Source of the DNA: a virus
Taxonomy: Duplodnaviria; Caudoviricetes
Strand: one strand, 5' to 3'
IMG/VR virus record: IMGVR_UViG_3300037961_002553
Location: 4,572 to 68,571 of that record
Length of the DNA: 64,000 nucleotides
Below the pieces are notes generated by a model. It searched no databases. It was not told the origin of the DNA and saw only the letters and a program-made list of their open reading frames with translations. Position 1 is the first letter of the stretch; each line of letters opens with the position of its first letter. The translations under genes were made by a program, and so were the position numbers. This document shows positions 4,521-50,982 of this stretch, piece by piece.

Positions 4521-4883
4521 TCACCATTCATCCCTTGGGTTGAAATAAGTGTGCCTTCCCCTATCATCGGAGACAAAAGAGCCGCCCCAACCCATTTCAT
4601 ATGAGCGAGTTCGCATTTCGGCGTTGTCCTCGTCAATTCGGGCTTGAATGTCCTTGTCGGTATAATGGAACGGTTTGTGCTCTGCTGCGTATTCCTTCCA
4701 AATTGGGAGAATCTCGTCCAAGTCGTCCTTTTCCATCATTTCGGAAGAAACATCGGCCTTCTCCCAAAAGGTTTCATAGATGGTATCTTCGCAGAAGAAA
4801 TACCTAACTCCTTCCATGTCCCTCACCCATCGGTTTTCATCGTCTGTTTTCTCAGTCAGCCATTTGTAAAAAGATTTTGCCAT
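4521..4883 (-). CDS. cassette hypothetical protein (120 aa, acidic and aromatic)
   Basis: GGAGG SD; ATACCTTAAT box upstream; 3' trailer CCCCCCTGTGAAGC. Confidence 0.75.
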   Translation of the reverse strand: MAKSFYKWLTEKTDDENRWVRDMEGVRYFFCEDTIYETFWEKADVSSEMMEKDDLDEILPIWKEYAAEHKPFHYTDKDIQARIDEDNAEMRTRSYEMGWGGSFVSDDRGRHTYFNPRDEW

Positions 4884-14332: not shown

Positions 14333-14539
14333 ATGATTAAGTTGAGAATTATGAACGAAACGGGACACACAGAAGTTGTCCTTGCAGAAAGCGAAGTTAT
14401 TGACCAAATTGACCAGCACCCGACCCATTGGGTGTTTATTGACGGTGAAATGGTTGCTAGAGAATCTATCGGGGAAATTAACTGGGACACCGTTCAATCG
14501 GTGGATTTGACCCCCGCTATTGTTGGAGGAAGTTATTGA
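14333..14539 (+). CDS. ubiquitin-like beta-grasp protein (ThiS/MoaD/SAMP type) precursor ending GG-SY
   Basis: 68 aa; WVFIDGEMV and VDLTPAIVGG match the ThiS/MoaD pattern (V.vNG / V.i.PavaGG). Confidence 0.75.
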   Translation: MIKLRIMNETGHTEVVLAESEVIDQIDQHPTHWVFIDGEMVARESIGEINWDTVQSVDLTPAIVGGSY

Positions 14540-14621: not shown

Positions 14622-15005
14622 GTGATGACACCCGATTTGATAAATTTTATCAACCAAAATGGATTAAAAATAATGCTAGACCTCAAAGGATGGACTTATT
14701 CCTCCGCTATTGAGATAAATGGTTTAGCAGTAGTCAAACCCGACTTTTACCCACCCCGCCATGTCCTCGCTATGGGCAAGAGGGGCTACATTTATTGCGA
14801 CGGGCAGACTCGGATAGATTACGCAGGGCAAGTGTTTTCATCAACAGATGAATTACTCAATACCTGCGGAGAAGAAGCAATTCTTCATTTTAAGGACTGG
14901 GTATTCCTTGAAGAAAAAGAATGGGTGATAACCGATGGTAGTCGTTGGTTAGCCTCATTCTCAAATCTTTCAGAATTACCTAAAAGAAGTAAATATAGGT
15001 GTTAA
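14622..15005 (+). CDS. hypothetical protein
   Basis: 127-aa ORF between the Ubl gene and the RNR gene. Confidence 0.6.
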   Translation: MMTPDLINFINQNGLKIMLDLKGWTYSSAIEINGLAVVKPDFYPPRHVLAMGKRGYIYCDGQTRIDYAGQVFSSTDELLNTCGEEAILHFKDWVFLEEKEWVITDGSRWLASFSNLSELPKRSKYRC

Positions 15006-16882: not shown

Positions 16883-17257
16883 ATGAAACTCTCCAAAATT
16901 TCTAATTTTGAAGAGTATTTAGATGTAATAACAATAATGGCTAGAGATTTATCGGATGAATCTTTACATAGAATAGGTATGGCAATCAATGTCTGTGATT
17001 CTTACATGGATGAGCAGGAAAAAATATATAGGCTAAATACCACTCTCAAAAAATGTCTGTGGGAATATGAAGAAGCAATCAACATGGGCTTTCACAAATT
17101 CATAATCAAACAGACAGGTAAAATTAAAGAATTGCTTAACTACCACCACTATAATTGTGAAGGAGAATCATGCGATGTTTGTAATATATTGAAAGAAACT
17201 AAAATAAAAATGGTGATTAATAATGAAAGAGAAGAACCCGCAATATATTCTCAATAA
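16883..17257 (+). CDS. hypothetical protein
   Basis: GGTGA SD. Confidence 0.6.
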   Translation: MKLSKISNFEEYLDVITIMARDLSDESLHRIGMAINVCDSYMDEQEKIYRLNTTLKKCLWEYEEAINMGFHKFIIKQTGKIKELLNYHHYNCEGESCDVCNILKETKIKMVINNEREEPAIYSQ

Positions 17258-17388: not shown

Positions 17389-18546
17389 ATGAAACTAAGA
17401 ATTAAAAAACCAGATGATAGTAATGATTATTTTGAAACGAACATTACTTGTGCTACCTATAATTTTAGAGAAGTTATGACGGTTAGTTATCTGCGAAGTG
17501 CTAAAGACCCAATTCAAGCAGGATTGGAAGCCTTTTGGAAAGATATTATTTCTCCTAGAAAATCAAGGAGAACCTATTATAATGGCTTTGGATATAACTT
17601 TCATCATATTGTTTTTATTGAAGGTTGTCCTATCGTTCTTTCAAGAGAAGGCATTCGTTATCAACTGAATGGTAAATCATACAGCCTTGCGACTATTTGT
17701 TCTGCTTTAGCAAGAATTACTTACAAATCATGTTTTGAGAAGAAGCCAGACGCTTTATTGTCTGCTTTGTATGCTACACTTAATTTACCAGAGAATGTCA
17801 AATATTGTATTGAAAATCGTGCGCCATTTCATTTCTTCCAAGACTTTGAGAAGCAAGATGTTCGTTTGAATGTCGTTCAAATTGATGATAAGATGCTCGC
17901 TATGGAAATCAGCGATGGTGTTTGGGGTGAAATAACTCCGAAGCAACTTGACTCTTACTGTAATTTCTATGTTCATGGTAAGCGAAGAGGCTCATGGAAG
18001 TATCTTTCTCCTAAATCCCTATATACTAGGTTGATGGGTCGTGAACCAACGGAGGCTGAATTGAAAGTGATGGTCGCCTTTTTGATGCAGAACAGAATGC
18101 AAGACATTGTGGATGCAAGAGCATTAGAATTAGTGGCTGATATGTTGGTTCAACACAAAGGCCGACTATCTGCTGAATATGACAATGATGGGGTTCTAAC
18201 AAATCTCTTCGTTAGAGGTAAAGATTATGATTGGCAATTGACAAATAATCGCTATAAGTCTGGTATTCAAATGGTTTCAACCTATGTCTGGCAACCAGTC
18301 TTAGAAGTCATTAGAGATGAAGATGATGTTAAAATCATCAAGGAAAAGAAAATGTCCGAACCAGATTGGCGTGGCCCAATTTGTATTGATAATATGGCTG
18401 ATGGCTCTCCATTAGGCGACCAATTCGCCGCAAGAGCGTTAGCCCTTCTTAACGACTCCTTTACAATAACAATAGTGAATACGATTAAGCGGTATCTTGC
18501 CGCCGAACCAAATGAATATAGGATTGATAATGATGATTTGCGATGA
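17389..18546 (+). CDS. putative E2-like (UBC-fold) conjugating protein with a large N-terminal domain
   Basis: C-terminal GPICIDNMADGSP...ALALLND resembles the E2 pattern G.ICLDIL...WSP...LL.D. Confidence 0.5.
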   Translation: MKLRIKKPDDSNDYFETNITCATYNFREVMTVSYLRSAKDPIQAGLEAFWKDIISPRKSRRTYYNGFGYNFHHIVFIEGCPIVLSREGIRYQLNGKSYSLATICSALARITYKSCFEKKPDALLSALYATLNLPENVKYCIENRAPFHFFQDFEKQDVRLNVVQIDDKMLAMEISDGVWGEITPKQLDSYCNFYVHGKRRGSWKYLSPKSLYTRLMGREPTEAELKVMVAFLMQNRMQDIVDARALELVADMLVQHKGRLSAEYDNDGVLTNLFVRGKDYDWQLTNNRYKSGIQMVSTYVWQPVLEVIRDEDDVKIIKEKKMSEPDWRGPICIDNMADGSPLGDQFAARALALLNDSFTITIVNTIKRYLAAEPNEYRIDNDDLR

Positions 18547-19390
18547 ATGTGGTAGCAACAATAACTCATTTGATGAGATACAAGGCGAAAGAATTTGTAA
18601 TGACTGTGGGCTTATCTTAGTCCAAGAGATGTTTGAAGAAACCGTTCACATTTTAGATACGGGCGGGAACCTCAAACATTCTGCTGATAAAGGCAGATTA
18701 GGTTCTGTTATTACAGGTAAAGGTTCTTACAAGTTTAATAAGTTCGGTAAGAATAGCGTAATTCCTCAGCATATTCAAAATGCTCTAATGCATTGTAATA
18801 TGATTTTGGCTCATGTTGCTCCTAATTTGGGATTGAATGAGCGTGTTGAGAAACTGTATCTTGATTTACATAGTAAGGGCGTATTCGGAAGAAGTCAAAT
18901 TGAAGCAAGAGCAACAGCAGTTGTCTTTTATGCTTTGAGAGAGAATGGAACGCCACATACCTTTGCAGAAGTTTCTGCTGAATTTGATGCTAACTTAAAA
19001 TCAGTTAAGAGATTAGTTAGAAAGATTAACCAAGTCTTTAGAAACAAAGCAGGTTATAGTCCTGTTAATCCACAGTATCTTTTAGAGAAAACTCTCAATG
19101 ATATTACCGATGATTTGGTGTTTAGGAGACAAACTATCAAGGTGTTGGAGTTCTTTGAAACAAAGGTAGCGCAAAATACCTTCAACAAGGGAAGGTCATA
19201 TTATGCTTCTATTATTTGGATTTCAGCAAACATGAATGTGAACACATTGATAACTCAAAATCTAATCACAAAGAAAACGGGGTTCTCTCGTTTCAATATT
19301 AGACGACAAACAAAAGCAATTCTATCTATGATTGGTTTAGAACTAGCCAGTCAAGTAAAAGGAAAACAATTAAGCGAACTAGGTGAATAA
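18530..19390 (+). CDS. tfb: transcription initiation factor TFB (TFIIB family)
   Basis: CDECGS...D..QGERICNDCGLI zinc ribbon; GRS...ATAVVFYALR and GRS..ASIIWI cyclin repeats. Confidence 0.88.
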   Translation: MMICDECGSNNNSFDEIQGERICNDCGLILVQEMFEETVHILDTGGNLKHSADKGRLGSVITGKGSYKFNKFGKNSVIPQHIQNALMHCNMILAHVAPNLGLNERVEKLYLDLHSKGVFGRSQIEARATAVVFYALRENGTPHTFAEVSAEFDANLKSVKRLVRKINQVFRNKAGYSPVNPQYLLEKTLNDITDDLVFRRQTIKVLEFFETKVAQNTFNKGRSYYASIIWISANMNVNTLITQNLITKKTGFSRFNIRRQTKAILSMIGLELASQVKGKQLSELGE

Positions 19391-19727: not shown

Positions 19728-20285
19728 ATGAGAAAAGTATTAGTAATTGGAGCAGGCGGAATTGGAAGTTTTCTAATTCCTACATTAGATAAAGTTGGTC
19801 TTTACCGCATTCATGTGGCTGACCCCGATGGTGTAGAAACAAAGAATCTACCTTATCAAAACTTTAAGAAAGGCCATGTTGGGCAGAATAAGGCTCAAGT
19901 AATGATGGATTCCTACGAATCTGTTAGTTCTTTCAGTAAATACCCAATTTTAACGGCAAAACAAATGGAGGGCTATGACCTTGTGATTTGTTGCGTTGAT
20001 AACTTGGGCGTGAGGCGAACCTTATACAACACAACCCTTAAATGGCTTGACTTACGAGCGCAAGGCAGAAATGCCGCCCTTGTGTCGCATAAGGCCGACC
20101 CGAAGATGTATGATATGCTCTTAGCAGGTGAAGAAGGTTCATTCAGTTGTCAAGGGGATTCTTGGGATGGAACAAATAGTAATGTTCATTTTATGCAGGT
20201 CGCAATTGCAGGATTAGGCGCACAATGGATTCAAAGATACTTCAATGATGAAGAAGTGAGAGATTATATGGTGGTGAATGTATGA
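19728..20285 (+). CDS. ThiF/MoeB family E1-like adenylyltransferase
   Basis: VIGAGGIGS, DPDGVETKNLPYQ, GQNKA, DLVICCVDN...R; candidate catalytic Cys in FSCQ. Confidence 0.9.
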   Translation: MRKVLVIGAGGIGSFLIPTLDKVGLYRIHVADPDGVETKNLPYQNFKKGHVGQNKAQVMMDSYESVSSFSKYPILTAKQMEGYDLVICCVDNLGVRRTLYNTTLKWLDLRAQGRNAALVSHKADPKMYDMLLAGEEGSFSCQGDSWDGTNSNVHFMQVAIAGLGAQWIQRYFNDEEVRDYMVVNV

Positions 20286-21327: not shown

Positions 21328-21912
21328 ATGGGAAGAATTAAAGATAAAATGATTAAAGACGGTGATGACGACGATGATGATGGTTATGACCATTATGAGA
21401 TTGAACAAGCAGAATTGGAGTATTTTCGTCAAAAAGCAATTGATGACATTAAGGCTCACTATGAGATTCTTTTGAACGAACAGTTGCGTTCTTGCGTTGG
21501 CCCAAGAGAAAAACTAGAAGGTGTTGCTATGCATTCTTTAGCATTTCATGACACTATTTGGCAAGCATCTACGGAAACTCTTCCTAATCTTGAAGTGCAG
21601 GTTGTAATTGATGGAAAGAACAATTGTTTCGTTTCAACGGGAAGTCCGGGTTTTGTTGATTTCTTTGAGCCTCCAATTGGTATGACTCTTCCTATTCGTT
21701 GTTGGATTCATACTCATCCATTTGGTGCTGCTTATTTTAGTGGAACTGATATTCGGACTGTTTCTATCTGGGAACCAAATATGGAATGTGCATATGTTCT
21801 TGGTGGAACTGGGCATTATGGTTTTTGGGAGAGTCGCTTTGAACCTAAGCAATTAGGAATCTATGTGAACAATGAAGAACATGAAATCCAAACATGGGGT
21901 GAAGAAGAATGA
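21328..21912 (+). CDS. JAB/MPN+ metalloprotease (deubiquitinase-like)
   Basis: Upstream E (LEVQ) and WIHTHPFGAAYFSGTD = HxH-x7-S-x2-D JAMM motif. Confidence 0.88.
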   Translation: MGRIKDKMIKDGDDDDDDGYDHYEIEQAELEYFRQKAIDDIKAHYEILLNEQLRSCVGPREKLEGVAMHSLAFHDTIWQASTETLPNLEVQVVIDGKNNCFVSTGSPGFVDFFEPPIGMTLPIRCWIHTHPFGAAYFSGTDIRTVSIWEPNMECAYVLGGTGHYGFWESRFEPKQLGIYVNNEEHEIQTWGEEE

Positions 21913-22196
21913 GTAAGAGAATTAAAAGCGGTTTAAGCACCGCCGCAAAATATCCAGATAGACCGATGAGAGAAGCCGAAAAAATTTCTTTGAAGAAAAG
22001 AGCCGAGCGACACACAAATGCTCATCCTAATGATAAGAACACGCTAAAGGAAAACAAAGGTGTTCAATGGGCAAAGTCAAGAAAGACTGAGCGAGATAAG
22101 AAATTGAAGCAGTTTTACAAAACTCATGTTTATACTTGGGTTTCCGAAAACCGCCGAGCATGGGTCGCTATTCCTCCAATGGAGGAAGAAGAATGA
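21909..22196 (+). CDS. basic hypothetical protein
   Basis: Coupled ORF. Confidence 0.6.
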   Translation: MSKRIKSGLSTAAKYPDRPMREAEKISLKKRAERHTNAHPNDKNTLKENKGVQWAKSRKTERDKKLKQFYKTHVYTWVSENRRAWVAIPPMEEEE

Positions 22197-22411
22197 AGGC
22201 TTTGGGCAATTATGCAGTAATTAAACTGGAAAATTCAGTATCTGCATCAGGTATTCAGGTTAAAATTGATAGCACAGGTATTGTGCATTCTTGTCCCTCA
22301 ATGCCCGAAGTGGAAGGTAAATTGGTTCTATTTGACGATAGACACCGTTTCGTGACTCACGAAGATATGATAGTTGTTTCTGTTGAACATTTATTGGGAG
22401 TGATTGAATGA
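22193..22411 (+). CDS. groES: GroES-like co-chaperonin
   Basis: MKALGNYAVIK...SASGI...LLGVIE, directly upstream of groEL. Confidence 0.75.
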   Translation: MKALGNYAVIKLENSVSASGIQVKIDSTGIVHSCPSMPEVEGKLVLFDDRHRFVTHEDMIVVSVEHLLGVIE

Positions 22412-23931
22412 TTTTGAATGGAGAAGAAGTAAAACAAAAGTTGCTACAAGGCATTAACTTGGTTGCTGATACAGTTAAACCAACATTAGGGCCACAAGCA
22501 AAAACTGTGATTTTACAGGGTAATCCTCCTGTTGTGATTAACGACGGAGTGACGATTACAAAATATATTTCCCATGACGACCCTTATGTTCAAATGGGAG
22601 TTCAATTAGTTCAAAATCTAGCAAGTAAAGCCCAAGAAGGTTCAGGCGACGGAACCACTACTGCTTGCATTCTTGCACAGGCTTTTTGTAATGAATTAAT
22701 GAAGAATGAAGAACACATGACTACACATGACTTTAATCTTCTAATGGAATCTCTTCGTGAGCAAACCATTAGTTTCTTAGATAGTATCTCTATGACTGTT
22801 GATGATATGGATATTTTCAATGTTGCTACGATTGCCGCAAACAACGATGCTTCTTTGGGTTCTTTAATCAAAGAAGCATTTAATACGGTTGGTCGTGATG
22901 GTGTGATTACTGTTGAAGAATCTAATGATTATCAAACTCAATTGATTCTTCGTGAAGGTATGGAAATCCAAGAAGGTTATTTGAGCCATCTTATGTGCAA
23001 TACGGAAAGTGGAAAGGTAGAGTTTAATAACCCTGTTGTTTTCATGTCAAATATGAGCCTCCGTCATTTCAAGGACATTATGCCTCTGCTTGAATATTCA
23101 GCGAGTCAAAGCCGACCTCTTTTGATTATGTGCAAAGGTATGGATGGTTCAGCACTTAACAATTTGATTATGAATCTAATCAATAAGACTGTTGAATGTG
23201 CAGTAGTTATGGCTCCTAATTTCGGAGATGCTCAAATTGATGAGTTGTCGGATATTCAGTCTTTAATTGGTGGTAAAGTCTTTGTTGAAGAAAGCAAGGA
23301 CGATTCTAAACTCTTTACTGAAACTGATTTGGGAACCTGTTCTAAAGTCATTATCACAAAAGAAACCACGACCTTTATTGGCGGAGAAGGCAATACCGAA
23401 GATAGAATCAAAGCCCTGAAAGAACAGGCACTTGATTTGAAAGGGCATGACTTGGCTCGGATTAAATCAAGAGTAGCCCGCCTCAAGGGTGGAATTGCTA
23501 CTATCAAGGTTGGTGCTTCTTCATCAATTGAAATGCGAGAAAAGAAAGAACGACTTGATGATGCACTTCACGCAACAAAAGCCGCCTTAGAAGAAGGTAT
23601 TGTTGTTGGTGGTGGTGTTCCATTTATTCGTCTTGCTTATGCCATTGAAGCACCCGAATGGTTTAGAAAGTCTGTTGTAAAACCTTATCGTGTTTTGATG
23701 GATAACGCAAACTACACCGAACAAACAAGAGTTGTGGGTTTTGAAATTGAAAAGACAATTGATGGAACAAATCCTAACTGGGGATTCAATGCCGTTTCAT
23801 GTCAGCATGAAGATTTGTTTAAGGCGGGAGTCTTTGACCCTGTGAAGGTTTCTAAGAACAGTTTCTTAGCAGCATTGTCAATTGCTCAGTTGTTTTATTC
23901 AACAGATGTAGCAGTATTAGTGGAGGAATAA
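22408..23931 (+). CDS. groEL: group I chaperonin GroEL
   Basis: TLGP, NDGVTI, GDGTTTA, GRDGVITVEES, IKVGA...EKKERLDDALHATKAALEEGIVVGGG, DPVKV. Confidence 0.95.
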   Translation: MILNGEEVKQKLLQGINLVADTVKPTLGPQAKTVILQGNPPVVINDGVTITKYISHDDPYVQMGVQLVQNLASKAQEGSGDGTTTACILAQAFCNELMKNEEHMTTHDFNLLMESLREQTISFLDSISMTVDDMDIFNVATIAANNDASLGSLIKEAFNTVGRDGVITVEESNDYQTQLILREGMEIQEGYLSHLMCNTESGKVEFNNPVVFMSNMSLRHFKDIMPLLEYSASQSRPLLIMCKGMDGSALNNLIMNLINKTVECAVVMAPNFGDAQIDELSDIQSLIGGKVFVEESKDDSKLFTETDLGTCSKVIITKETTTFIGGEGNTEDRIKALKEQALDLKGHDLARIKSRVARLKGGIATIKVGASSSIEMREKKERLDDALHATKAALEEGIVVGGGVPFIRLAYAIEAPEWFRKSVVKPYRVLMDNANYTEQTRVVGFEIEKTIDGTNPNWGFNAVSCQHEDLFKAGVFDPVKVSKNSFLAALSIAQLFYSTDVAVLVEE

Positions 23932-24153: not shown

Positions 24154-24552
24154 ATGAAAGAGAAAGCAATTACTGTTGTTTTACCTGCGCCACATAAGCA
24201 AAGGATAAAATGCCCTATCTGTGAAGGAAACAAATGTAAAGTCTGCAATATGTCTGGGGAACTAGGTATTAATGTAGCACCAAAAATTCCGATTCAAAGG
24301 GCGCATATCATCAAATATGTTGCTGAAAATATGCACGAAGTAGCAAAGGAAATTACTCGCAAATATGGTTTAGTGCCTGAAATTAATACGGCTGAAGTGA
24401 TAGAAGTAAATGGAGGACAATTTGAAGTTGTTCAGATTTCTAGTCTTGGCGGTGTTTGTTGGGTTGTGAATCGCTTGGATGATTTAGATACTCCAAGATA
24501 TTTTACATCAAAACAGGAACTTGACAAGTTTAAACAGGGGTGGATGAATTGA
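24154..24552 (+). CDS. zinc-finger protein
   Basis: CPICEGNKCKVCNMSG. Confidence 0.65.
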   Translation: MKEKAITVVLPAPHKQRIKCPICEGNKCKVCNMSGELGINVAPKIPIQRAHIIKYVAENMHEVAKEITRKYGLVPEINTAEVIEVNGGQFEVVQISSLGGVCWVVNRLDDLDTPRYFTSKQELDKFKQGWMN

Positions 24553-24761
24553 CAGATGAATTGGAAGTTAAAGGAACCATAGTCCGTAATGCTGAACTGG
24601 ACTGTAAAATAAAGCGTGGTGTCTATTGGAATATAGAGGTCGTGGATATTCGTTGGTATCGTAATGACAAACCAACGAATAAAGGCATTCGTTTGAATGT
24701 TGATGAAGCAAAATTGTTATTACAAATTTTAAGGAGAGAATTAGATGAAGAGAGTAAGTGA
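24549..24761 (+). CDS. PC4/YdbC-like ssDNA-binding protein or transcription coactivator
   Basis: VDIRWY...PTNKGIRL signature; start codon uncertain. Confidence 0.75.
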   Translation: MTDELEVKGTIVRNAELDCKIKRGVYWNIEVVDIRWYRNDKPTNKGIRLNVDEAKLLLQILRRELDEESK

Positions 24762-33769: not shown

Positions 33770-35437
33770 ATGATAATTAGTAGAATGAATGATGGAAATA
33801 GAATATATAAATCTTGGAGAGAAAACGGAGAAAAGAAACATGAGATTGTTCCCTTTAGACCTTATTTCTATGTTAAGGAAGATAGTGCAGAACCATTTGA
33901 ATATAGACCTTCTAAATATATTAGTCGGGAGTTTGAGTATATTCGTGGCGATTGGGTTAATCTTAACAACGAGCCGTTGAAGAAGGTAATCGTTGAGACT
34001 TCTCACGATATGCGAAAAGCAAAGGATATGTTCGGTGAAACCTATGAAGCCGATGTTCCTTTTCACTTTCGGTATTGTGTTGATGAGTTAGATGAAATGC
34101 CCGAATATAAAATGCGTAAATGGTATTGGGATATGGAATGGCAACAAGGTGGCGATTATCACGACCAATTGACTACAATTGTTGTTTATGATAACTACGA
34201 TGAGAAATACTATCAATGGTCGTGGTTCCCTGAAGATGAATGGATTCCGAACAAACAACTTCAAGCAACCGATAATTATGAAACATATTTTTCTTTTTCA
34301 GAAAGAACAATGATTGAGTCTTTTATGAACGCTATGATTGTAAAAGACCCCGATATGTTAATTGCTTGGTTTGGTCATTTTGCTGATTTACCAAAGTTAT
34401 TTGAACGAGCGTGTGCGGTGGGTCTTGACCCTCGCATTATTTCACCAACGGCAACAGTCAAGGGAGTTAAGTCTGTAAAAGACGGCTATGAGTTCAAATA
34501 TTCGGAGAAAGGTTTTTCTCCAATTGAACAACCTATTGGTGGGCGAATTACACTTTCTTTGGACTTAGCATTTGAAAGACAATGGAATGATTCTCAAAGA
34601 GGAACATTACCCTCGCTTTCTCTTGATTATATCGGTGAAACAGTTCTTGATAAAAAGAAGTTGGTATCGGAAAAGTTTCCAGACACCAATGAATTTTATC
34701 GCAGGGCTTGGTTAGAAGATACACAAACATACCTCAAATATGCTTTGAGAGATGTTGAATTGATGGTTGAGATTGACGAAACTAATTTTTGTAGTGAAGC
34801 AATTCTTTCTCTTCAACGATTACTGAAAGCACCATTTGATGCTTGTTTTTATGCAAGTCATATGGGTTCTATCTACTTTATGCGAAACGCTTGGTGGAAA
34901 GCACCAACGGGTAGTAAAGTGGATAAAAGAGAAGAATATGAAGGGGCTATGATTTACGACCCATTAAGTGAAGGAACAAACGGATTACATTTAAATGTAG
35001 CCGCCTTTGATTTTGCTGGTCTATACCCTTCAATGATGATTGCTCGCAATATCAGTTGGGAAACTAAATCAGTAGAGCCGACTGAATTTGCAGTTAATAT
35101 TCTTACTCCGAGAGACTTTAGCGAAACAAAACATGAGCAGATGCTCTATTACAAAACGGATAAACTCGGCTTACTACCAAGAGCCGTCCTTGAATTGAAG
35201 GAGTTGCGAAATGAATATAAACGACTGATGCGAGAGGCAAGAGAAACGGACAATGGCGAGTATGCGAAGTGGTATAACAATCAAATGGCAGTTAAGCGTC
35301 TAATGGCTTCTTTTTATGGCATTGTTGCCTTTCAAGGATTTGGTTGGGCTGATGTTGATTTGGCGGCATCTATTACTGCAAGTGCAAGAGAAGCAATTAG
35401 ATTAGCGGCGTTTGCTGCAAAGGAGATGGAAGCATGA
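33770..35437 (+). CDS. polB: family B DNA polymerase, N-terminal part (exonuclease plus motifs A and B)
   Basis: FRPYFY, YEADV, WDME, FDFAGLYPSMM, QMAVKRLMASFYG; ends at ITASAREAI before motif C. Confidence 0.93.
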   Translation: MIISRMNDGNRIYKSWRENGEKKHEIVPFRPYFYVKEDSAEPFEYRPSKYISREFEYIRGDWVNLNNEPLKKVIVETSHDMRKAKDMFGETYEADVPFHFRYCVDELDEMPEYKMRKWYWDMEWQQGGDYHDQLTTIVVYDNYDEKYYQWSWFPEDEWIPNKQLQATDNYETYFSFSERTMIESFMNAMIVKDPDMLIAWFGHFADLPKLFERACAVGLDPRIISPTATVKGVKSVKDGYEFKYSEKGFSPIEQPIGGRITLSLDLAFERQWNDSQRGTLPSLSLDYIGETVLDKKKLVSEKFPDTNEFYRRAWLEDTQTYLKYALRDVELMVEIDETNFCSEAILSLQRLLKAPFDACFYASHMGSIYFMRNAWWKAPTGSKVDKREEYEGAMIYDPLSEGTNGLHLNVAAFDFAGLYPSMMIARNISWETKSVEPTEFAVNILTPRDFSETKHEQMLYYKTDKLGLLPRAVLELKELRNEYKRLMREARETDNGEYAKWYNNQMAVKRLMASFYGIVAFQGFGWADVDLAASITASAREAIRLAAFAAKEMEA

Positions 35438-35928: not shown

Positions 35929-36146
35929 CCGATGATAGAGTATATTTAGAAACACTAAAAGAAATTAAAAACATGAAAGAACAAATGCATAAAGAAATTT
36001 CTAGAATGAAGGCGGAAATGGATATTATGTATATTGAATTACAAAGAGCAAAACAAGAAATTGGTGCTATTCGTGAAATACAAGAAGAAGTAGCAAAATT
36101 AGCAGGTGTTCCTGTTGGAATGCTATTTACAAATTACCGAGCGTGA
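35925..36146 (+). CDS. coiled-coil hypothetical protein
   Basis: ATGA overlap; heptad pattern. Confidence 0.6.
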   Translation: MTDDRVYLETLKEIKNMKEQMHKEISRMKAEMDIMYIELQRAKQEIGAIREIQEEVAKLAGVPVGMLFTNYRA

Positions 36147-36150
36147 TAAC

Positions 36151-37044
36151 TTGAAAGTAGTTTATGGACATACAGATTCTATCTATGTGCAGATAGATTC
36201 GGTGGAGCAAGCACAAAAATCAATTAAAGAGATTGAGGCAAAAGTGCGAGAACATTTTCCTAATGTGATGGGATTAGATAATCATCCCGTTGTTCTTGAA
36301 TTTGAAAAGTATTATTCAGCATTGGGTGTTGGAACAACCAAAAACAGAAACGCAGGATTAGTGTCTTGGGAAGATGGAGAATGGTTAGAAAAACCAAAGT
36401 TCAGTATGACTGGATTTACGGCGAAGCGTGTTAGCGAAACAAAATTAGCGAAAGAAGTGCAAACAAATGCTCTCAAAATGTGGGTAGAACAAAAGACCTA
36501 TCCTGAAATTACCAAGTATTTGTATGAAACATTTAAATCTGTGAATGAAGGGGATATTCCAATCTCTTCCATTATCAAAAGAAGCCGTCTAAGGCAAAAC
36601 CGTTTCACAGTAAAATGCCCCGAATGCAAGACACAATATCATTTGCGTGATTGTATTCATCTAAAGCATAAAGTTTGTGAAAAGTGCGCTACACCAACGA
36701 AGCAATTTACCACTCTTGAAGGAAAGAAGCCGACGATTGGTTCGGGTATTGCTGGTGTTTTGTATGCTTGGGAAAAGAAAAAGGCTAATTTTGATGACTC
36801 TTATCTCTTCTTAAAAGTAAAGAGAGTAAATGATTTCTATACGCATCCTTTAACGCAAGAAAGGCGAGAAGTGGAATACTTATCAGGCATAACCTACGAG
36901 GATTTCAAGGGTTGTAGTCCCGATTGGGGCTTCTATTCGCAACAGGTTATCAAGAAGGCGGAACCCATTTTCAAGGCTATGGGATGGGACACAACGGCCA
37001 TACGCACAGGAAAAATACAGTCAAGCCTTGACGAATGGTGGTGA
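36151..37044 (+). CDS. polB: family B DNA polymerase, C-terminal part (motif C and thumb) with a Zn-ribbon insertion
   Basis: VVYGHTDSIYV, LEFEK, KNRNAG, CPEC...CEKC; C-terminal PIP-like QSSLDEWW; TTG start. Confidence 0.88.
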   Translation: MKVVYGHTDSIYVQIDSVEQAQKSIKEIEAKVREHFPNVMGLDNHPVVLEFEKYYSALGVGTTKNRNAGLVSWEDGEWLEKPKFSMTGFTAKRVSETKLAKEVQTNALKMWVEQKTYPEITKYLYETFKSVNEGDIPISSIIKRSRLRQNRFTVKCPECKTQYHLRDCIHLKHKVCEKCATPTKQFTTLEGKKPTIGSGIAGVLYAWEKKKANFDDSYLFLKVKRVNDFYTHPLTQERREVEYLSGITYEDFKGCSPDWGFYSQQVIKKAEPIFKAMGWDTTAIRTGKIQSSLDEWW

Positions 37045-44487: not shown

Positions 44488-44818
44488 CCTCCAACAAAAT
44501 AAACAGTTCTAATGTTTCTGTTGTGGAAAATGGGCCAACTCCTTCAAAATTGGTTCTATATACTAAATCGCTTCCGTTAAATAAACCGACTTCACGGATA
44601 ACTTGACCTTGAATAGCACTACCCGCTACTGATACCTTTACCTCAATAACATTTAATGTGGAATTTGTAATTGTTAATGTTGTAGAAGCAGATAATGGAA
44701 CATCTAAATCCGTAGCGGTTGGGCTAGTAGAGTTTCCACCAAGACCAATTTTTGCTGTATCAAAGAGATTATCTTTGATATGAGTAGCAATTAATGTTTT
44801 TAATTCATCTGTAATCAT
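44480..44818 (-). CDS. tail or baseplate small protein
   Basis: IGLG...IREVGLF motif of tail-collar-type proteins. Confidence 0.6.
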   Translation of the reverse strand: MITDELKTLIATHIKDNLFDTAKIGLGGNSTSPTATDLDVPLSASTTLTITNSTLNVIEVKVSVAGSAIQGQVIREVGLFNGSDLVYRTNFEGVGPFSTTETLELFILLEVE

Positions 44819-47800
44819 GCTAAATCTTCCTCCACTAAATCAGTAATTGTGATTGCTCCACCTGTAAATCCTAAAGCAGTAGTAAATCCTAACGCTGTTC
44901 CAAAACCGAGAGTCCGACCTGCGCCTCCCGCACTTCTCTTCCGAACCAACAATTTAAGTTCTTTGGTGTTCAAGGTGTTTAAGAAATTGTAAGAAATCTC
45001 ATTTGATTGTAAATTAGCACTTCTTAATGCTGCTTTTGTTTCTTTACTTGAAATCAGCAGTTCTGAGAAAACATCGGAAAGGTCTTTACTATAACGGCCA
45101 AGTTGTAATTTAATAAAACCAGTAAGTTGATGTTCCATCTCTAATACAATATATTCATTCATTTCAATGTTTTCTCTTGGAATAGAAACATTTACAATAT
45201 CCCCGACTCGTAGTTGATTTATTCCTTTATTTTGCATAGTAAAAGATAATTTTTGATTAAGACGAGAATGAATCATCAAAAGTTTAGTAGCCCTTTTATC
45301 TACTTCTTCTTGAGTAAGTAGTGTATTATCTACCACTTCTAATGTTTTTCTGCCTCTCTTGTTAATTGAACGCAAATCTTTACGAGTAGTCTTATGAGAA
45401 CTACCATAAACAATAATTTCATTAAAGAAATCAAAAAGCGTTGAAACCTTTTCAAATTCAGAAATCAAAAATTCTCCACTATCATCAATTAAAATATCTG
45501 TTCGTAGTGAATCCTCATCCTCTGGGAAAATTTTGAATGTATTGTTTTCTTCAACGAGTTTCATACCCTTTCTATCAAGAACATATCTTATTGCAGAATA
45601 CAAATCTACTCCTTGATAATTCGGTGCTAAATACATTGGCGTATCTGTTGAAGTTGTTATAAATTCAATTCCTTCTTGTTCAAGTAATTCATTGATTAAA
45701 TCTTCACCTTCAAGACCTATACTTACTGTTGAGCCAATACAGGCTCTTGTCGGGTCAATTTTTAAATCTTCCACAGTCTCAAAAGTAAAAGTTTCCGAAA
45801 GGCTTACTACTCCATCCATTTTTGATAGTTCACCAAAATTTAAAATTGTTTGGGTTTCTCCAGTAAATTCAATTCCAGATTTAACCCCTAAAGAAGTTGA
45901 GATTTTATTTTCACCATCAGACATAAAAATACTATATTCATTTTGCGGCAACGCTTCTAAAAAGTTTTTTGATTTTCTCATTACCAAATAGTCTTCACTA
46001 GTGCTTTGTTTATCAGGGTCAATGGCTACATACATTGATAAAAATGCTTCTCTTCTTGGGCCAGTTTTATCTGGTGTTGCTGGTGGCCCTCCACTTTTTG
46101 TTTTTCCTTCAACCCCTTCAACAATATCAATATCTTGTTGAACATTATACATTTTATCTTCTCCTGACATTTTCGTATATTTAGAAGATAAAGTATTCAA
46201 AGAAATTTCTTTTGGTGAAAATTCATAAAAGGTTGTTTCATTTGGTTTAAGGATACGATATGCTTCTTCATCAGTTAAGGTTTTATCAAGAATTAAATTA
46301 TGTTTTCTTGTCCCACTATTAGCCACAGTATGAGAAATAACATAAATTAAATCATCAGGGATAACTCCCTCCATGTTTCTTGAAGAAGTTGTATTTTCAT
46401 CACCCGTAGCAACATCTTCTTGTAAAATAGTGTCTTTTCCTGCTTCGGAAACTAAATAGCAGCCTGTTAAATCTACAAAGTCTATCCAACCAAGACTTTC
46501 ATTATATACATTTAACGAGTAGCGATAAAGAGTTCCATTAGAAGATGTTATTTCTTGATGGGTTTCATCCGAACCATCTCCATCAAAGTCAAACTCATGT
46601 TCACTTGCATCATACCATAATCTAGGTTTTAATCCAAATTTAATGCCTGTGGCTTCATATGGGCCGCTTCCTGAAGAAGTTACGGTATTAACTGTTTTAT
46701 CAGGATATTTATAACGAAAGTTTCTACTATTGCTTGCCAAAACAACTAAATCAGTAAAATTAGTCCCATCATCAAAATTATTTATGTTTCCAGTAGTTAA
46801 AGGAATAGTCACTCCCTTTTCAACTGGATATTTTTGAGCATCTTCAATATCGTAAGTATCTAACACAACAGAAATATTATGTTTATGTATATTTCCTATT
46901 CCTGCAAAAGTCATATAAAAAGCCCTAGATGGCATAATTCTTAAAGTAGAGGTTAAGGCAGGAGCCGCATTTGGATATTTAAATCGTATTGGTGCAACAA
47001 TTCTATCACTAGCACCTAGATTCAAAACAGTAGATGAGTTATTTGAATGCCAACTATTTGAAGAGTCGGACTGGTAATTTTGAGTTACTATTGCTCCTTT
47101 TAAAATATGTGCTCTATCTTGAGATATAAATGTGTTTTTATCCTTTGTGCCTTCTATATAAATAATATCATTTCTACTTCGTTGATAAACAGTTCCTACC
47201 GTAAATGTTCCATCATCATTTAAAAGAGCCGCACTTCCTAAAGTAATTGTTTTTGTTCCGCTATTATAACTACTAACTGTTCCAATTAACTTATAGTTTG
47301 CATCATAGAGAACATCTGTTCCTGTTGGTGGATTTGAACTTTCTACAGTATCTAAAATTAAAGTGGTAGTTGAAGCGGCTAATGAATTTGTAATTGATGT
47401 AGAACTTAAAGTCCCAACAGCAGAAAAGGTATATCCATCAAACTGACCAGCACTTAAATAATTAGCGTCCTTTACTGTTTCTTTTTCAGGATTAAATAAG
47501 TTATAATGAATATCAAAACAGAGTTCTGTTAATCTCATTATACCTACTCTTTTTAAAGAAGATATGTCAGTATTTTCAGCAATAGAAATTGTTTGATAAG
47601 AATTATCTGTAAGTAAAATCTGATTTCCTGATGAAGTTTCGGTATATTCTAAAACGCTATCTTTGACATTTTTATTTTCTAACAAAAATAAATTATATTT
47701 TGATAAAGTTTTATTACCATCCATAAGACTATCTTTTCTTAGAGAAGAATAAGGTAATAAATCACCAGTAATGTATAAAAATAAAGTAGAAGCAGATGTA

Positions 47801-50800
47801 ACTTTTTGGTCTAAGGATGCTATCAAGTTTTCAAGTTGATAAACATTAGTGTCAAATTCATCAGTATATTTAGTATCATCACTAACATTTCTTCTTACTC
47901 TTGAAAGACCATTAAAAATAGAACCATATGCACTACCGAAACCTCGCATATCAAAGTCCATATGAATATCATCACCTGTTCCTGTTTTATCATAAGAACT
48001 TAAGTTATTAGATGAAATATTAGGAGAAAACTTATAATTAATAGTATTATGTTTTATATTTGAACTATTAACATGAGTTTCTCTAAAAGGATATGTAATT
48101 TTAGATGGAGTAAAAGTTAATTGATTAAAATTACCTTTTGATTTAGAGATTGATTTATAGTAAGGCTGTCCATATTTTTTGTTAGTATCTGTATTGCTTC
48201 CGTAAATATTTTCAACATTTAAAGGAACTGCGCCACTTGATGTTAATTTACTATGAGGATGAATTAATATTTTTCCTCCCCACAAATGTTCTCCATTTAT
48301 CAAAAATAAATCATGTGTATCTTTGCTTACAGAATAAATTTTATGTCCAGCAGTTGTAGTAAAGTCTCTATCTAAATATAATAAATTACTCTGGTCAGCA
48401 GTCCCTCTTTGCATTCTTTTTGTTCTAACAAATCCAGCAAAAGAAGCGGTGCTTGCACTTGCACCAATAAATACTGGGTCATTTCGGTCTAAATTTTTAA
48501 TTCCATCATCTGTGGCTTCAATAATGTTTGGTCTTGTGCTATTGATATTTGCACCTGTATGTTCAATAGTTGCTCTTTCTGTTAAAGAATACCCCTCAGA
48601 GTTTCCAAAATTAGGTATTTTTTTACCTAAAGTAATAGGAACATATGGGGCTAATTCTATTACGGTTGTGTTATCTTTCTTTGAAGTTGAAACCACTTCA
48701 AAATCAATTAGTGTATTTACAGTATCAAAGGTTGATTCTCCTGCGCTCCCGTGTTCGTCTTTTAATTTTGATTGAAAGGCAAAGTCATTTGAAATAGATG
48801 ACGGTTTATGAATTGCATATCCAATTGCACCAACACTTGTATTTGCACTACTTGAAACTAAAGAGTCGCTTTCAGCACCGCTTGACATTGTGATTTGGTT
48901 TCCTGCTGTAAAAATTAATCCTTTATTAGCGGCTCCTGTAAGAGAAGAGGGTTTGTTTGTAGCAAGGTGGGATGAACCAAGTGCCTTTGAGAGAATATAA
49001 TTTTTCTCGGTATCAATGTAAATTTTTTCTGAATTGGCTTCTGTTAATGCTGCAGTAAAATTGATTGTTAATGGGTCGCCAGAAGTAGAAGTAATTTCTC
49101 CTATATATCCATTAACCGTGAAAATTTTATCGCCTGTTGTTGGAACAATATCAAAGTCCGATACTGCAATCCCTGTTGCTTTTGTTGTATCTCCTAAAGC
49201 GATTGAGAGTGTAGTAGAATCAATCTGTGATAATTTATTATACGGGCTATTGCTAGAATAAATAATATCTTCAGTAAACAAAGTATTTAAATTCACAACA
49301 GGAGAGAGTAATTTACTAAACTTATCTCTTCCCTGAATTTCCATAATTGTTTGCCCATTTTCCTTTTTATTCTCAATATTTTCAATTTCACCATTAAATC
49401 TTTCAATAAAAATTTGATATTGTCCTTTAGCAAAACTCAATGGGTTAGTATGGTATGAATCGGTATCAAACGATAGCGTAATCATTCCTTTCGTATTATC
49501 ACAAGCGGTAATTGTAGCAAACCTTTCATTGTGGTTTAATGATGTAAAAGCAACATACATCTTGCTAAACCTGCCATTTAATAGTGAAATATCAAGCATA
49601 AGTGTTCCGTCAGTTGCGTTATATGCTCGCCTGTGAAGCACATCTCCGCTTGTTGGGGTCGTGGACTGTGCGGTAAAAGAAGCGTCGTTCTCCGTTCTTA
49701 CATAGGGGTGTGTGGACGACTGGAAGGTTATCTCTTGGGTTGTTCCAGACAGGCTTCCAAAGGATTGAACAATTAAAATGTTATTTCCTAACTTGACCTC
49801 ATCTCCTGCATTTAGAACAGTATTTAAATTATACTCAGTATTGAAAGAAAATACTGCATTAGAAGTCTTTGAACTATATGTTGCGGCTAAAGCGAAAAAC
49901 TCGTTCATATCACCACGATGAATGTTATGTCGCACACGATATGCGTCAAACTCTTTCACTTTTCTTGGCATAATTCTGCCGTTATCAATGACAGAGGTTT
50001 CTGCAAATCCACCCTTTCCATCAATTGATTCTGTGTTTGTGTGGTCATATACATTGTAAAGAAGATTAGATTTTGTTGGTGAAAAATCGTAATGTAAATA
50101 TCTTTTTGGCCCAGTATATGTGGGAGAATTGATTTCATCATCGCCCATTCTTCTTGCATTTGGGTATGCCCCTTGATAACTTGAATAAGATAAAGAAACA
50201 GTTCCTCCTTCGTTTTTAGTGGTGCTTCCTCCACCACCAACATCTAAATCTCTTAATTTATCTGTTAATGTGACTCTATGAGTAAATCTACTATAATCAA
50301 TAACTACTTTACCAAAGTCTTGAACAGTCCTAAATGTAATAGCATTTGTTGTATCAAAGGTATGAGAAGTGGTGGATATGCTGGCGTGTTTTTGCATAGC
50401 ATAATATTTGGTATTGTGGTCTAATTCATTGTTCTTATCAAGCAATCCATTAAAGAAATAAAACAAAGGTCTAGCACATGAAAGTTTATCTTCTAAAGTA
50501 AGGCTTGAAGTATTGTTTAGAATACCAGCAGAGAACGCAAGAATATTATTGTTGGTTATTGCGTGTCCCTTGAAAATCATAAACTTCGTATCTTTAGGAA
50601 TTTCATTTCCTAACTTTGGTTCAAACTCAAAAGCATCTCCCGCAGAATCTTCTGCTAAAATTTCTGTAATTCTAGCAAAATGATGGCGAGTATCTGTGTC
50701 CGAATATACTAAAACAAAGTAATAGTGAGTAGCAAAGGCGGCGGGATTAAATTGTATTCCATCTGTTGTGAGGGCATCATAGCACTTAATTCTAAACCCT

Positions 50801-50982
50801 TTGGTTGTATTTAGATTAGAATATTGAGTAGTTCCTGTAAAGACTTCTGTTGTAAAAGTGTTTGCTCCATCAGCAGCGATAGCCGTAAAAATACGCTCAT
50901 CATTATTTATGGAGGTGTCTTTAAATAAAGGGTTTGTTGGAGCATCATCTTTATCTCCTGCTGGATTCAAGTCAAAACTCAT
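44815..50982 (-). CDS. very large tail tip / hub protein (2055 aa)
   Basis: MEIQGRD hub-like motif; C-terminal NEIIVYG...LRVGDIVNV; downstream of the tape measure gene. Confidence 0.7.
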   Translation of the reverse strand: MSFDLNPAGDKDDAPTNPLFKDTSINNDERIFTAIAADGANTFTTEVFTGTTQYSNLNTTKGFRIKCYDALTTDGIQFNPAAFATHYYFVLVYSDTDTRHHFARITEILAEDSAGDAFEFEPKLGNEIPKDTKFMIFKGHAITNNNILAFSAGILNNTSSLTLEDKLSCARPLFYFFNGLLDKNNELDHNTKYYAMQKHASISTTSHTFDTTNAITFRTVQDFGKVVIDYSRFTHRVTLTDKLRDLDVGGGGSTTKNEGGTVSLSYSSYQGAYPNARRMGDDEINSPTYTGPKRYLHYDFSPTKSNLLYNVYDHTNTESIDGKGGFAETSVIDNGRIMPRKVKEFDAYRVRHNIHRGDMNEFFALAATYSSKTSNAVFSFNTEYNLNTVLNAGDEVKLGNNILIVQSFGSLSGTTQEITFQSSTHPYVRTENDASFTAQSTTPTSGDVLHRRAYNATDGTLMLDISLLNGRFSKMYVAFTSLNHNERFATITACDNTKGMITLSFDTDSYHTNPLSFAKGQYQIFIERFNGEIENIENKKENGQTIMEIQGRDKFSKLLSPVVNLNTLFTEDIIYSSNSPYNKLSQIDSTTLSIALGDTTKATGIAVSDFDIVPTTGDKIFTVNGYIGEITSTSGDPLTINFTAALTEANSEKIYIDTEKNYILSKALGSSHLATNKPSSLTGAANKGLIFTAGNQITMSSGAESDSLVSSSANTSVGAIGYAIHKPSSISNDFAFQSKLKDEHGSAGESTFDTVNTLIDFEVVSTSKKDNTTVIELAPYVPITLGKKIPNFGNSEGYSLTERATIEHTGANINSTRPNIIEATDDGIKNLDRNDPVFIGASASTASFAGFVRTKRMQRGTADQSNLLYLDRDFTTTAGHKIYSVSKDTHDLFLINGEHLWGGKILIHPHSKLTSSGAVPLNVENIYGSNTDTNKKYGQPYYKSISKSKGNFNQLTFTPSKITYPFRETHVNSSNIKHNTINYKFSPNISSNNLSSYDKTGTGDDIHMDFDMRGFGSAYGSIFNGLSRVRRNVSDDTKYTDEFDTNVYQLENLIASLDQKVTSASTLFLYITGDLLPYSSLRKDSLMDGNKTLSKYNLFLLENKNVKDSVLEYTETSSGNQILLTDNSYQTISIAENTDISSLKRVGIMRLTELCFDIHYNLFNPEKETVKDANYLSAGQFDGYTFSAVGTLSSTSITNSLAASTTTLILDTVESSNPPTGTDVLYDANYKLIGTVSSYNSGTKTITLGSAALLNDDGTFTVGTVYQRSRNDIIYIEGTKDKNTFISQDRAHILKGAIVTQNYQSDSSNSWHSNNSSTVLNLGASDRIVAPIRFKYPNAAPALTSTLRIMPSRAFYMTFAGIGNIHKHNISVVLDTYDIEDAQKYPVEKGVTIPLTTGNINNFDDGTNFTDLVVLASNSRNFRYKYPDKTVNTVTSSGSGPYEATGIKFGLKPRLWYDASEHEFDFDGDGSDETHQEITSSNGTLYRYSLNVYNESLGWIDFVDLTGCYLVSEAGKDTILQEDVATGDENTTSSRNMEGVIPDDLIYVISHTVANSGTRKHNLILDKTLTDEEAYRILKPNETTFYEFSPKEISLNTLSSKYTKMSGEDKMYNVQQDIDIVEGVEGKTKSGGPPATPDKTGPRREAFLSMYVAIDPDKQSTSEDYLVMRKSKNFLEALPQNEYSIFMSDGENKISTSLGVKSGIEFTGETQTILNFGELSKMDGVVSLSETFTFETVEDLKIDPTRACIGSTVSIGLEGEDLINELLEQEGIEFITTSTDTPMYLAPNYQGVDLYSAIRYVLDRKGMKLVEENNTFKIFPEDEDSLRTDILIDDSGEFLISEFEKVSTLFDFFNEIIVYGSSHKTTRKDLRSINKRGRKTLEVVDNTLLTQEEVDKRATKLLMIHSRLNQKLSFTMQNKGINQLRVGDIVNVSIPRENIEMNEYIVLEMEHQLTGFIKLQLGRYSKDLSDVFSELLISSKETKAALRSANLQSNEISYNFLNTLNTKELKLLVRKRSAGGAGRTLGFGTALGFTTALGFTGGAITITDLVEEDLA

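Follow-up and report, generated by a model that had tools for sequence, protein, structure and literature searches.

Operons that bring together genes for an E1, an E2, a JAB peptidase and a ubiquitin-like modifier (Ubl) have reportedly been described in prokaryotes, in work by Iyer, Burroughs and Aravind from 2006 (PMC1779556). The known prokaryotic E1/E2/JAB systems are cellular, and many of them defend against viruses. Here we analyze a comparable set of genes carried by a magrovirus, a tailed virus of marine group II archaea. The window, as we call the whole 64,000-nucleotide stretch of DNA that was analyzed, covers positions 4,572 to 68,571 of IMG/VR record IMGVR_UViG_3300037961_002553. 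The protein under study, labelled E2L here, has 385 residues and is encoded on the plus strand of the window. From sequence comparison and predicted structure, we read E2L as what would be a new E2-like family, very divergent and part of a Ubl cassette that the virus encodes.

The gene set around E2L is that of the prokaryotic operons, of which CBASS Cap2, Bil and Bub are examples: a Ubl, a ThiF-type E1, a protein of (here predicted) ubiquitin-conjugating (UBC) fold, and a processing or deconjugating peptidase. The viral E1 is matched by Cap2 and by the PADLOC E1-E2 models over the adenylation domain. In contrast to the prokaryotic operons, the block is carried by a virus rather than serving cellular defence, and the E1 and the E2-like protein are separate genes with a gene for the transcription factor TFB between them. 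E2L itself matches neither a PADLOC E1-E2 model nor the Pfam Prok-E2 families. The Bub antiphage system is described as working through oxyesters, whereas E2L has an invariant cysteine.

In archaea, the SAMP/UbaA/HvJAMM1 system likewise combines a JAMM protease and a single ThiF-type E1 with a ThiS/MoaD-like modifier ending in GG. The viral cassette adds a UBC-like protein with an invariant Cys, and its E1 has 185 residues, compared with the 270 positions of the UbaA model. Conjugation of the SAMP type in archaea is the subject of two abstracts (PMC4895103, PMC4443979).

The predicted UBC-like domain of E2L

We consider it somewhat more probable than the opposite that E2L is a very divergent E2-like enzyme of UBC fold and the conjugating part of a magrovirus cassette made up of Ubl, E1, E2-like protein and JAMM protease. 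The gene and its parts are as follows.

17389..18546, plus strand: E2L gene, ATG start, 385 residues; a conserved magrovirus family without a database family
17389..18006, plus strand: N-terminal region, residues 1-206; mixed alpha/beta, no fold assigned
18007..18096, plus strand: two conserved helices ahead of the UBC-like core, residues 207-236, carrying SP..L and FL.QNR motifs that are nearly invariant (domain-model helices 9-17 and 23-35)
18097..18537, plus strand: predicted UBC/E2-like core, residues 237-383; helix, beta-meander, Cys loop, then helices
18295..18366, plus strand: beta-hairpin insert of variable length, residues ~303-326, with large indels among homologs, immediately before the Cys; makes up the long strands 97-110 and 118-132 in the domain model
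18382..18384, plus strand: codon of Cys332, the proposed catalytic Cys in GPICIDN; reads tgt

An earlier note on this DNA had proposed a cryptic E2/UBC-like domain in this open reading frame, had quoted a peptide from it and had placed the cysteine codon at 18382-18384. Frame and peptide are both present as described: the frame encodes 385 residues from its ATG, its translation contains WRGPICIDNMADGSPLGDQFAARALALLND, and the codon is that of Cys332. The note had also staked its proposal on two properties, a fold related to UBC and conservation of the Cys in homologs. Both were found. The predicted fold is UBC-like and the Cys is invariant, so that neither property counts against the proposal, which is partly supported. 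No significant sequence-profile link to UQ_con or to the Prok-E2 families was found, and the note's suggestion that a substrate-selecting N-terminal domain makes the protein an E2-E3-like fusion is a conjecture.

The full-length AF2 model of E2L has a pLDDT of 81 and a pTM of 0.49. Modelling of residues 200-385 with a 70-sequence alignment gives a pLDDT of 91 and a pTM of 0.77. In this domain model, two short helices and a long helix lead into strands 61-65, 71-77 and 82-87; after a long hairpin made of 97-110 and 118-132 comes the Cys, at domain position 133, and behind it helices 143-155, 157-163 and 165-168. The predicted domain has the elements that characterize the UBC fold, namely an N-terminal helix, a four-stranded antiparallel meander, a crossover helix and C-terminal helices. 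Cys332 comes directly after the last strand and 10 residues ahead of the crossover-type helix 143-155; in the predicted model this is where a catalytic Cys is expected, past the last core strand and short of the crossover helix. In E2s, about 14 residues separate the Cys from this helix.

The structural matches listed for the E2L models belong almost wholly to the UBC superfamily and are colinear from end to end over 105-122 residues. E2 chains also make up much of the weak Foldseek rows for the domain model, and a second look at Foldseek's top 1000 for the full-length model, using VIA-align, gave the same range and the same picture in the top 50. The alignments to E2s are colinear throughout, first helix to last; model residues 238-381, for example, align with residues 4-151 of Ubc13. 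The predicted domain and canonical E2s (UQ_con, PF00179; UBE2S, Ubc9, Ubc13, Ube2K) have their elements in the same order, with alignments spanning E2 residues ~3-152. The local motif G.IC.D is also common to them; the next helix ends in LL.D in E2L (ALLND) and in LLtDP in the E2 profile. Alignments of E2L to RWD, UEV and FANCL ELF/URD domains are shorter, 79-104 residues compared with 105-122 for E2s. These domains are not known to have a conserved catalytic Cys, unlike E2L, in which the Cys is invariant. Other searches gave little: Foldseek against BFVD returned only three unnamed homologs, a profile of E2L alignment A1 against PDB sequences gave one chance-level row (SMCHD1, E 0.7), and ESM Atlas gave no usable match to residues 225-385.

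The E2L domain was also compared with E2s by profile alignment. A back-translated HPN-x6-ICLDIL pattern recovered 80 loci, mostly giant-virus contigs, and from these a reference set of 71 distinct proteins of 130-200 residues was taken; all of the sampled proteins (8/8) match PF00179 at E<=4e-45. When the E2L domain profile is aligned with these 71 UQ_con proteins by hhalign, the best local alignment places w.GpICIDN on s.G.ICLDIL, with a score of 21.5 (P 0.011, probability 4 %). Overall, the scores range from 21.5 to 23.0 and P from 0.006 to 0.011. Extended greedily, the alignment stays colinear for 119 columns, beginning at the first helix and reaching the helices that follow the Cys. Restricted to match columns, it scores 23.0 across 79 columns, a value reached by 0/292 column shuffles (mean score 12.9, standard deviation 2.5, maximum 22.1). 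The alignment gives weak but real support to the suggestion that the motif picked out in the earlier note is an E2 active-site motif.

Is the motif itself unusual? A six-frame translation of the window contains the pattern G.IC[LIVM]D a single time, where about 0.07 occurrences are expected (14/200 residue shuffles contain at least one); for the pattern together with LL.D 10-25 residues downstream, the expectation is 0.005 (1/200 shuffles). These expectations mean that the motif alone is not significant for a scan of very many windows. It is conservation that makes the motif real.

Conservation was analyzed in alignment A2 (36 sequences, 20-57 % identity), in alignment A3 (70 sequences), and in 268 family proteins aligned to the family hidden Markov model, 33 of which are fragments without the Cys332 column. 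Position 332 is a Cys in all 235 of the 235 proteins that cover it, and also in every sequence of A2 and A3. A2 has ten invariant columns (W179, G277, Q294, V296, C332, D344, Q345, R349, N355 and T365), and the C-terminal members of this set are invariant in A3 as well. Cys332 sits in a conserved polar cluster formed by D334, N335, D344, Q345, R349, N355 and D356; Q345, R349 and N355 are each found in 235/235 proteins, D334 in 227/235 and N335 in 217/235. The surrounding stretch, GPICIDN...GDQ..R.....ND, is the most conserved, polar stretch of E2L. Outside it, P208, L211, L232, Q234, N235 and R236 are at least 90 % conserved in A2, with N235 present in 231/232 proteins and R236 in 226/232. No His is invariant in A2, which makes a Cys-His protease unlikely. 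That the Cys never varies in this most conserved polar stretch favours, along with the hhalign result, a catalytic role.

In a collection clustered at 90 %, E2L has 492 homologs at E<=1e-3, labelled 'hypothetical protein' in their sources; none of the 492 carries a Pfam domain. At the 50 % level the family has 167 representatives, which reach down to ~25 % identity. Searches of E2L against Pfam, PHROGs, NCBIfam and PADLOC found nothing under E 0.07, and tblastn found no match in the INPHARED phage records. The relatives lie on virus contigs that mostly measure 20-97 kb; marine sampling, Tara Oceans included, is the source of many. Among cellular genomes (185,579 species genomes) there is one match, 38 % identical over residues 25-376, on the 24-kb contig NZMJ01000151.1 (locus L087) of a metagenome-assembled genome labelled Maricaulis sp. 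Probably it is a viral contig that binning placed with a bacterial genome. Within the reach of the searches made, the E2L family thus appears to be confined to this virus group.

Several other possibilities concerning the protein were considered and set aside. Short family members of 130-230 residues look like gene calls cut at contig ends and were not counted as stand-alone domains; among proteins of 675-2000 residues no fused or longer form was found, which is weak evidence. The idea of an internal duplication, with the N-terminal part as a second UBC-like domain, was rejected: hhalign of N-terminal slices against the C-terminal domain gave probabilities of at most 0.2 %, and a control with two overlapping N-terminal slices gave 9.1 % over their 5 common columns. 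Two loci (L084 and L085) had only a weak match of 75 residues, were matched by none of nine profile hidden Markov models, and were dropped. Separately, marine metatranscriptome contigs from two runs, mostly 90-95 % identical, overlie parts of the cassette; one of 1,231 nucleotides covers 18086-19295, which includes the Cys codon and most of the TFB gene. Such contigs are not proof of transcription and are not used as evidence here.

A conserved block of Ubl, E1, JAMM and TFB genes

The genes that accompany E2L in the window are listed below.

14333..14539, plus strand: 68-residue candidate ubiquitin-like/ThiS-like modifier (Ubl), ending PAIVGG-SY, three kilobases upstream of E2L
14622..15005, plus strand: 127-residue conserved protein, directly after the Ubl gene in 54/80 loci
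16883..17257, plus strand: 124-residue conserved protein, between Ubl (or ribonucleotide reductase) and E2L
18530..19390, plus strand: TFB/TFIIB-like transcription factor; its start overlaps the E2L stop; Pfam and NCBIfam matches
19728..20285, plus strand: 185-residue ThiF-family E1-like adenylating enzyme; Pfam ThiF
21328..21912, plus strand: 194-residue JAMM/MPN+ metalloprotease candidate; HTHPFGAAYFSGTD fits HxHx7Sx2D

The set that marks a prokaryotic Ubl operon, a ThiF E1, a Ubl ending in GG and a JAB/JAMM peptidase, is present around E2L. Using alignment A1, we found 80 related virus loci. E2L and TFB are present in all 80, ThiF in 77, JAB in 76 and Ubl in 72. Each missing ThiF, JAB or Ubl corresponds to a locus that ends too early; the eight loci without Ubl have short upstream flanks. 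Ribonucleotide reductase is present in only 50 of the 80; in the loci that lack it, the Ubl gene is found ~0.8 kb upstream of E2L. Three further loci encode a divergent E2L, 20-30 % identical to that of the window, and have a compact run in the order Ubl-(124-residue protein gene)-E2L-TFB-ThiF-JAB. The co-occurrence shows an old conserved block. The presence in this block of a GG-ended protein, a ThiF-type E1 and a JAMM protease strengthens the idea that E2L is E2-like.

In the candidate Ubl, residues P61, A62, V64, G65 and G66 are invariant in 25 sequences, and PA[IV]VGG is followed by 0-2 variable residues. GG with a short tail is seen in ubiquitin-like modifiers and in certain sulfur carriers that have to be trimmed at the C-terminus. 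Among named ESM-Atlas clusters, the one nearest to this protein is ThiS, with a score of 0.83, which we take as a lead only. We also observe weak Pfam matches, under the cut-off, to PinA (Inhibitor_I24, the phage T4 Lon protease inhibitor) in 16/25 members, the best with E 4.6e-4; they may be due to chance or reflect a tie to protease control.

The E1-like protein is assigned by database match: Pfam ThiF (PF00899) is found at E 1.2e-16, 61.1 bits against a cut-off of 28.1. The GxGGIGS nucleotide-binding loop, D32, D34, K55, D91, N92, R96 and C141 are invariant in 25 sequences, and the alignment contains no extra domain. In NCBIfam it matches ThiS adenylyltransferase (E 8e-13) and, weakly, the SAMP-activating enzyme UbaA (E 4e-7). 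Its profile matches structures of ThiF-type enzymes, UBA5, NEDD8 E1, MccB, Cap2, Uba4, MoeB and ThiF.

For the JAMM candidate, HxHx7Sx2D is found in 68/69 distinct reading frames, the single exception being cut at a locus end, and E89, H128, H130, S138 and D141 are invariant. Pfam Prok-JAB is matched by 21 of 25 members below the cut-off (20.2 versus 25 bits). The best solved match of the profile is to AMSH-like JAMM deubiquitinases (E 0.002), and one public fragment is labelled 'proteasome lid subunit RPN8/RPN11'. An assignment to WD-40/coatomer proteins was rejected. It came from phmmer against PDB sequences, with E down to 9.5e-15 over residues 126-191 (0 separate stretches). With the family profile these rows fall behind the AMSH-like ones; our reading is that ...YFSGTDIRTVSIWE resembles a WD repeat by chance.

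The TFB gene follows E2L in 83/83 loci, the 80 related ones and the three divergent ones. Its mechanical reading frame begins at TTG 18497; ATG 18530 or 18533 (MMICDECG, the start of the Zn ribbon) is likelier, and these candidates overlap the E2L stop codon at 18544-18546 by 14-17 nucleotides. The product matches Zn_Ribbon_TF (E 1.8e-5) and TFIIB (E 0.0099) in Pfam and transcription initiation factor IIB in NCBIfam (E 4.3e-10). The overlap of E2L with the tfb start, proposed in the earlier note, is therefore borne out. The same note called the adjacency to TFB suggestive only, which understates it, as the link is more than loose adjacency in these 83 loci. The constant pairing and the overlap of frames point to co-expression and possibly to a link in function. 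According to its abstract, one of the archaeal studies reports that a TATA-binding protein undergoes ubiquitin-like modification in an archaeon (PMC4895103). That modification makes transcription factors a conceivable, if speculative, class of target.

The 124-residue protein lies directly upstream of E2L in 70/80 loci and is also found in locus L081. It has an LW..EA..GF motif and a partly conserved YH..NC..C..C, and no family in Pfam, NCBIfam or PADLOC. It and the 127-residue protein could be further components of the cassette or its targets.

Proposed pathway and competing explanations

The pathway set out here, with its chemical steps, their order, the role of the N-terminal region and the targets, is what we infer from the predicted fold, the aligned and invariant Cys, the E1, JAMM and GG signatures and the observed co-occurrence. 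The JAMM protease would trim the 0-2 residues that follow PAIVGG of the 68-residue Ubl. The ThiF-type E1 would then adenylate the exposed Gly-Gly, and the Ubl may be held on the invariant Cys141. From there the Ubl would be handed over as a thioester to Cys332 in the E2-like domain (residues ~237-383) and transferred onto a lysine of host or viral proteins; reversal of the modification may be a further task of the JAMM protease. Target or partner binding probably falls to the N-terminal ~235 residues, and the neighbouring small proteins possibly help to choose targets. In its widest form, the proposal is that magroviruses, some of the commonest surface-ocean viruses, carry a full minimal Ubl conjugation pathway, with a 66-residue modifier, a 185-residue E1, a JAMM protease and a new family of E2s joined to a targeting domain. 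This pathway, genetically coupled to the viral TFB, would tag host or viral proteins (e.g. transcription- or proteasome-linked ones) during takeover of marine group II archaea. We give this wider proposal slightly less than an even chance.

A number of results weigh against E2L being an E2-like enzyme. The HPN motif is absent from E2L and from the consensus of 35, 36 or 70 homologs, as the earlier note had remarked of E2L; several divergent E2-like families are likewise not known to have an HPN. Searches against Pfam (E<=0.1 for E2L, E<=5 for 36 divergent members) found no family, including UQ_con and Prok-E2, and neither NCBIfam nor PADLOC with its E1-E2 models gave a match. Considering also that the hhalign probability is 4-6 %, we do not file E2L in those sequence families. 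Neither the full-length nor the domain model has a PDB match at E<=0.001 in Foldseek, and the best E2 rows have E 0.2-1 and a TM of about 0.3. Unlike canonical E2s, the domain model has a long extra beta-hairpin of variable length before the Cys and a shorter C-terminal helical part; E2L further differs in its two additional conserved helices with the QNR motif, in its ~200-residue N-terminal extension and in being an archaeal-virus gene. The proposed equivalence of Cys332 with the E2 Cys is drawn from the topology of the model and the weak hhalign alignment. The candidate Ubl matches no ThiS, MoaD or ubiquitin in Pfam or in PDB sequences. All loci come from one related virus group that shares most of its genes, so that the co-occurrence is not independent evidence. 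Archaeal SAMP conjugation is not known to need an E2, and the cassette could accordingly run without E2L. The low scores and the missing HPN keep our confidence in an E2-like enzyme only a little above even.

Could the domain be UBC-like and yet not an enzyme? The C-terminal domain could be a non-catalytic adaptor of the UEV, RWD or FANCL-ELF kind, for example a partner of the viral TFB or a scaffold that binds Ubl, with a structural Cys, while Ubl, E1 and JAMM work without an E2 in the manner of SAMP. We regard this as unlikely. Among proteins 20-30 % identical, one would expect Ala, Ser or Val to take the place of a purely structural Cys in some, yet it is retained in every family protein that covers the column and lies in the most conserved polar stretch. 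The sole sequence-profile signal against E2s also falls on the catalytic motif. A more distant explanation is that a small alpha/beta sandwich happens to resemble UBC, and that the protein is, for instance, a replication or transcription factor that uses its polar patch otherwise. The match lists argue against this, being almost pure UBC superfamily with long colinear alignments, as do the hhalign result, which hit the catalytic motif and beat 292/292 shuffles, and the three other Ubl-pathway components in the same conserved block. Chance resemblance is, in our view, distinctly unlikely.

The same genes could also serve a sulfur-carrier pathway of the ThiS, MoaD or QbsE type, in which the E1 adenylates the carrier, the JAMM protease removes its tail, and Cys332 is a persulfide or sulfur relay that replaces the rhodanese domain absent from the short E1, for a thiolation useful to the virus. 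Sulfur-carrier pathways also show a GG end, a short tail and a JAMM enzyme; QbsD removes the tail of QbsE. The E1 is most like ThiF/MoeB-type enzymes in NCBIfam, where it matches ThiS adenylyltransferase; it is just 185 residues long with no additional domain, and the ESM-Atlas lead for the small protein points to ThiS. Against these features stand the predicted UBC-like domain, with no rhodanese or sulfurtransferase chain among the structural-match rows, and the absence of a thiolation target enzyme (ThiG, MoaE or NcsA-like) from the Pfam results of the window. The matches of the E1 profile to UBA5, NEDD8 E1 and Cap2 are also at least as good as those to MoeB and ThiF. We hold a sulfur-carrier role to be very improbable and retain a divergent E2-like enzyme as our reading of E2L.

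The virus and the meaning of the cassette

The IMG/VR record that contains the window has 68,571 bases and an estimated completeness of 74 %. The genes of the window fall into two blocks.

~7 to 42 kb, plus strand: UvrD-type helicase, class II ribonucleotide reductase, TFB-like factor, MazG-like pyrophosphatase
~7 to 42 kb, plus strand, further: Cpn60/TCP-1 family chaperonin, ATP-dependent DNA ligase, RFC-like clamp loader
~7 to 42 kb, plus strand, further: split family B DNA polymerase, PD-(D/E)XK nuclease, ERCC4 nuclease
43 to 64 kb, minus strand: tail-tube protein and large unannotated genes

The window also has three tRNA genes (Leu-TAA, Met-CAT and Arg-TCT). Magroviruses of marine group II archaea were described by Philosof et al. 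(2017; PMC5434244), whose text gives group B a ribonucleotide reductase, tRNA-Leu and tRNA-Arg. The gene make-up of the window and the marine relatives of its E2L gene agree with that description, which identifies the virus as a magrovirus.

Several further features of the window were noted. The family B DNA polymerase is split over two plus-strand reading frames ~670 bases apart, 33770-35437 with the exonuclease and the first polymerase part and 36106-37044 with the remainder, which fits the PolB-NTD/CTD labels in the figure legend for Aoguangviridae from the virus-taxonomy committee ICTV. A 91-residue frame at 22136-22411 (plus strand) precedes and overlaps the Cpn60/TCP-1 chaperonin gene at 22408-23931 and is kept in 60/80 loci; it has no match in Pfam and may be the co-chaperonin named in the ICTV profile for this virus family. 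The 73-residue product of 24540-24761 (plus strand) has a weak match to the PC4 coactivator/single-stranded DNA-binding domain (E 4.6e-5), slightly under the cut-off. In the structural module, a 2,055-residue frame at 44815-50982 (minus strand) is without a Pfam family. A Glu-rich tail (..EE, ..EEE or ..EEEE) ends 14 of 51 plus-strand reading frames between 10705 and 41632, often shortly before or overlapping the start of the next gene. As a conjecture, such tails would follow if the 3' end contained a purine-rich ribosome-binding stretch that serves the gene after it.

How much of the cassette has been noticed before? The main text of PMC5434244 mentions a chaperonin and contains no ThiF, JAB, ubiquitin, TFIIB or MoaD; its supplementary tables may hold annotations. 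The genome section and figure legend of the ICTV Aoguangviridae profile name TFB, and Ubl, E1, E2L and JAMM are not among the legend's abbreviations. Our literature search found nothing that links magroviruses with ubiquitin, and among the best-ranked results nothing that links them with ThiF or links Magrovirales or Aoguangviridae with E1-like, MoeB or sulfur-carrier proteins.

If our reading of E2L is correct, it would be an E2-like family so divergent that no sequence library searched here recognises it, and a new branch in the archaeal world's E2 evolution, which would be of high interest to specialists in ubiquitin evolution and archaeal viruses. The four proteins of the cassette would offer a small system for studying E2 catalysis without HPN. 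The constant pairing with a viral TFB suggests a testable link between Ubl tagging and the control of transcription. The cassette, conserved in the magrovirus loci examined, would belong to a very abundant group of ocean viruses. In archaea, the same chemistry would then be used on the attacking side, as a virus-side counterpart of the bacterial E1/E2/JAB defence.

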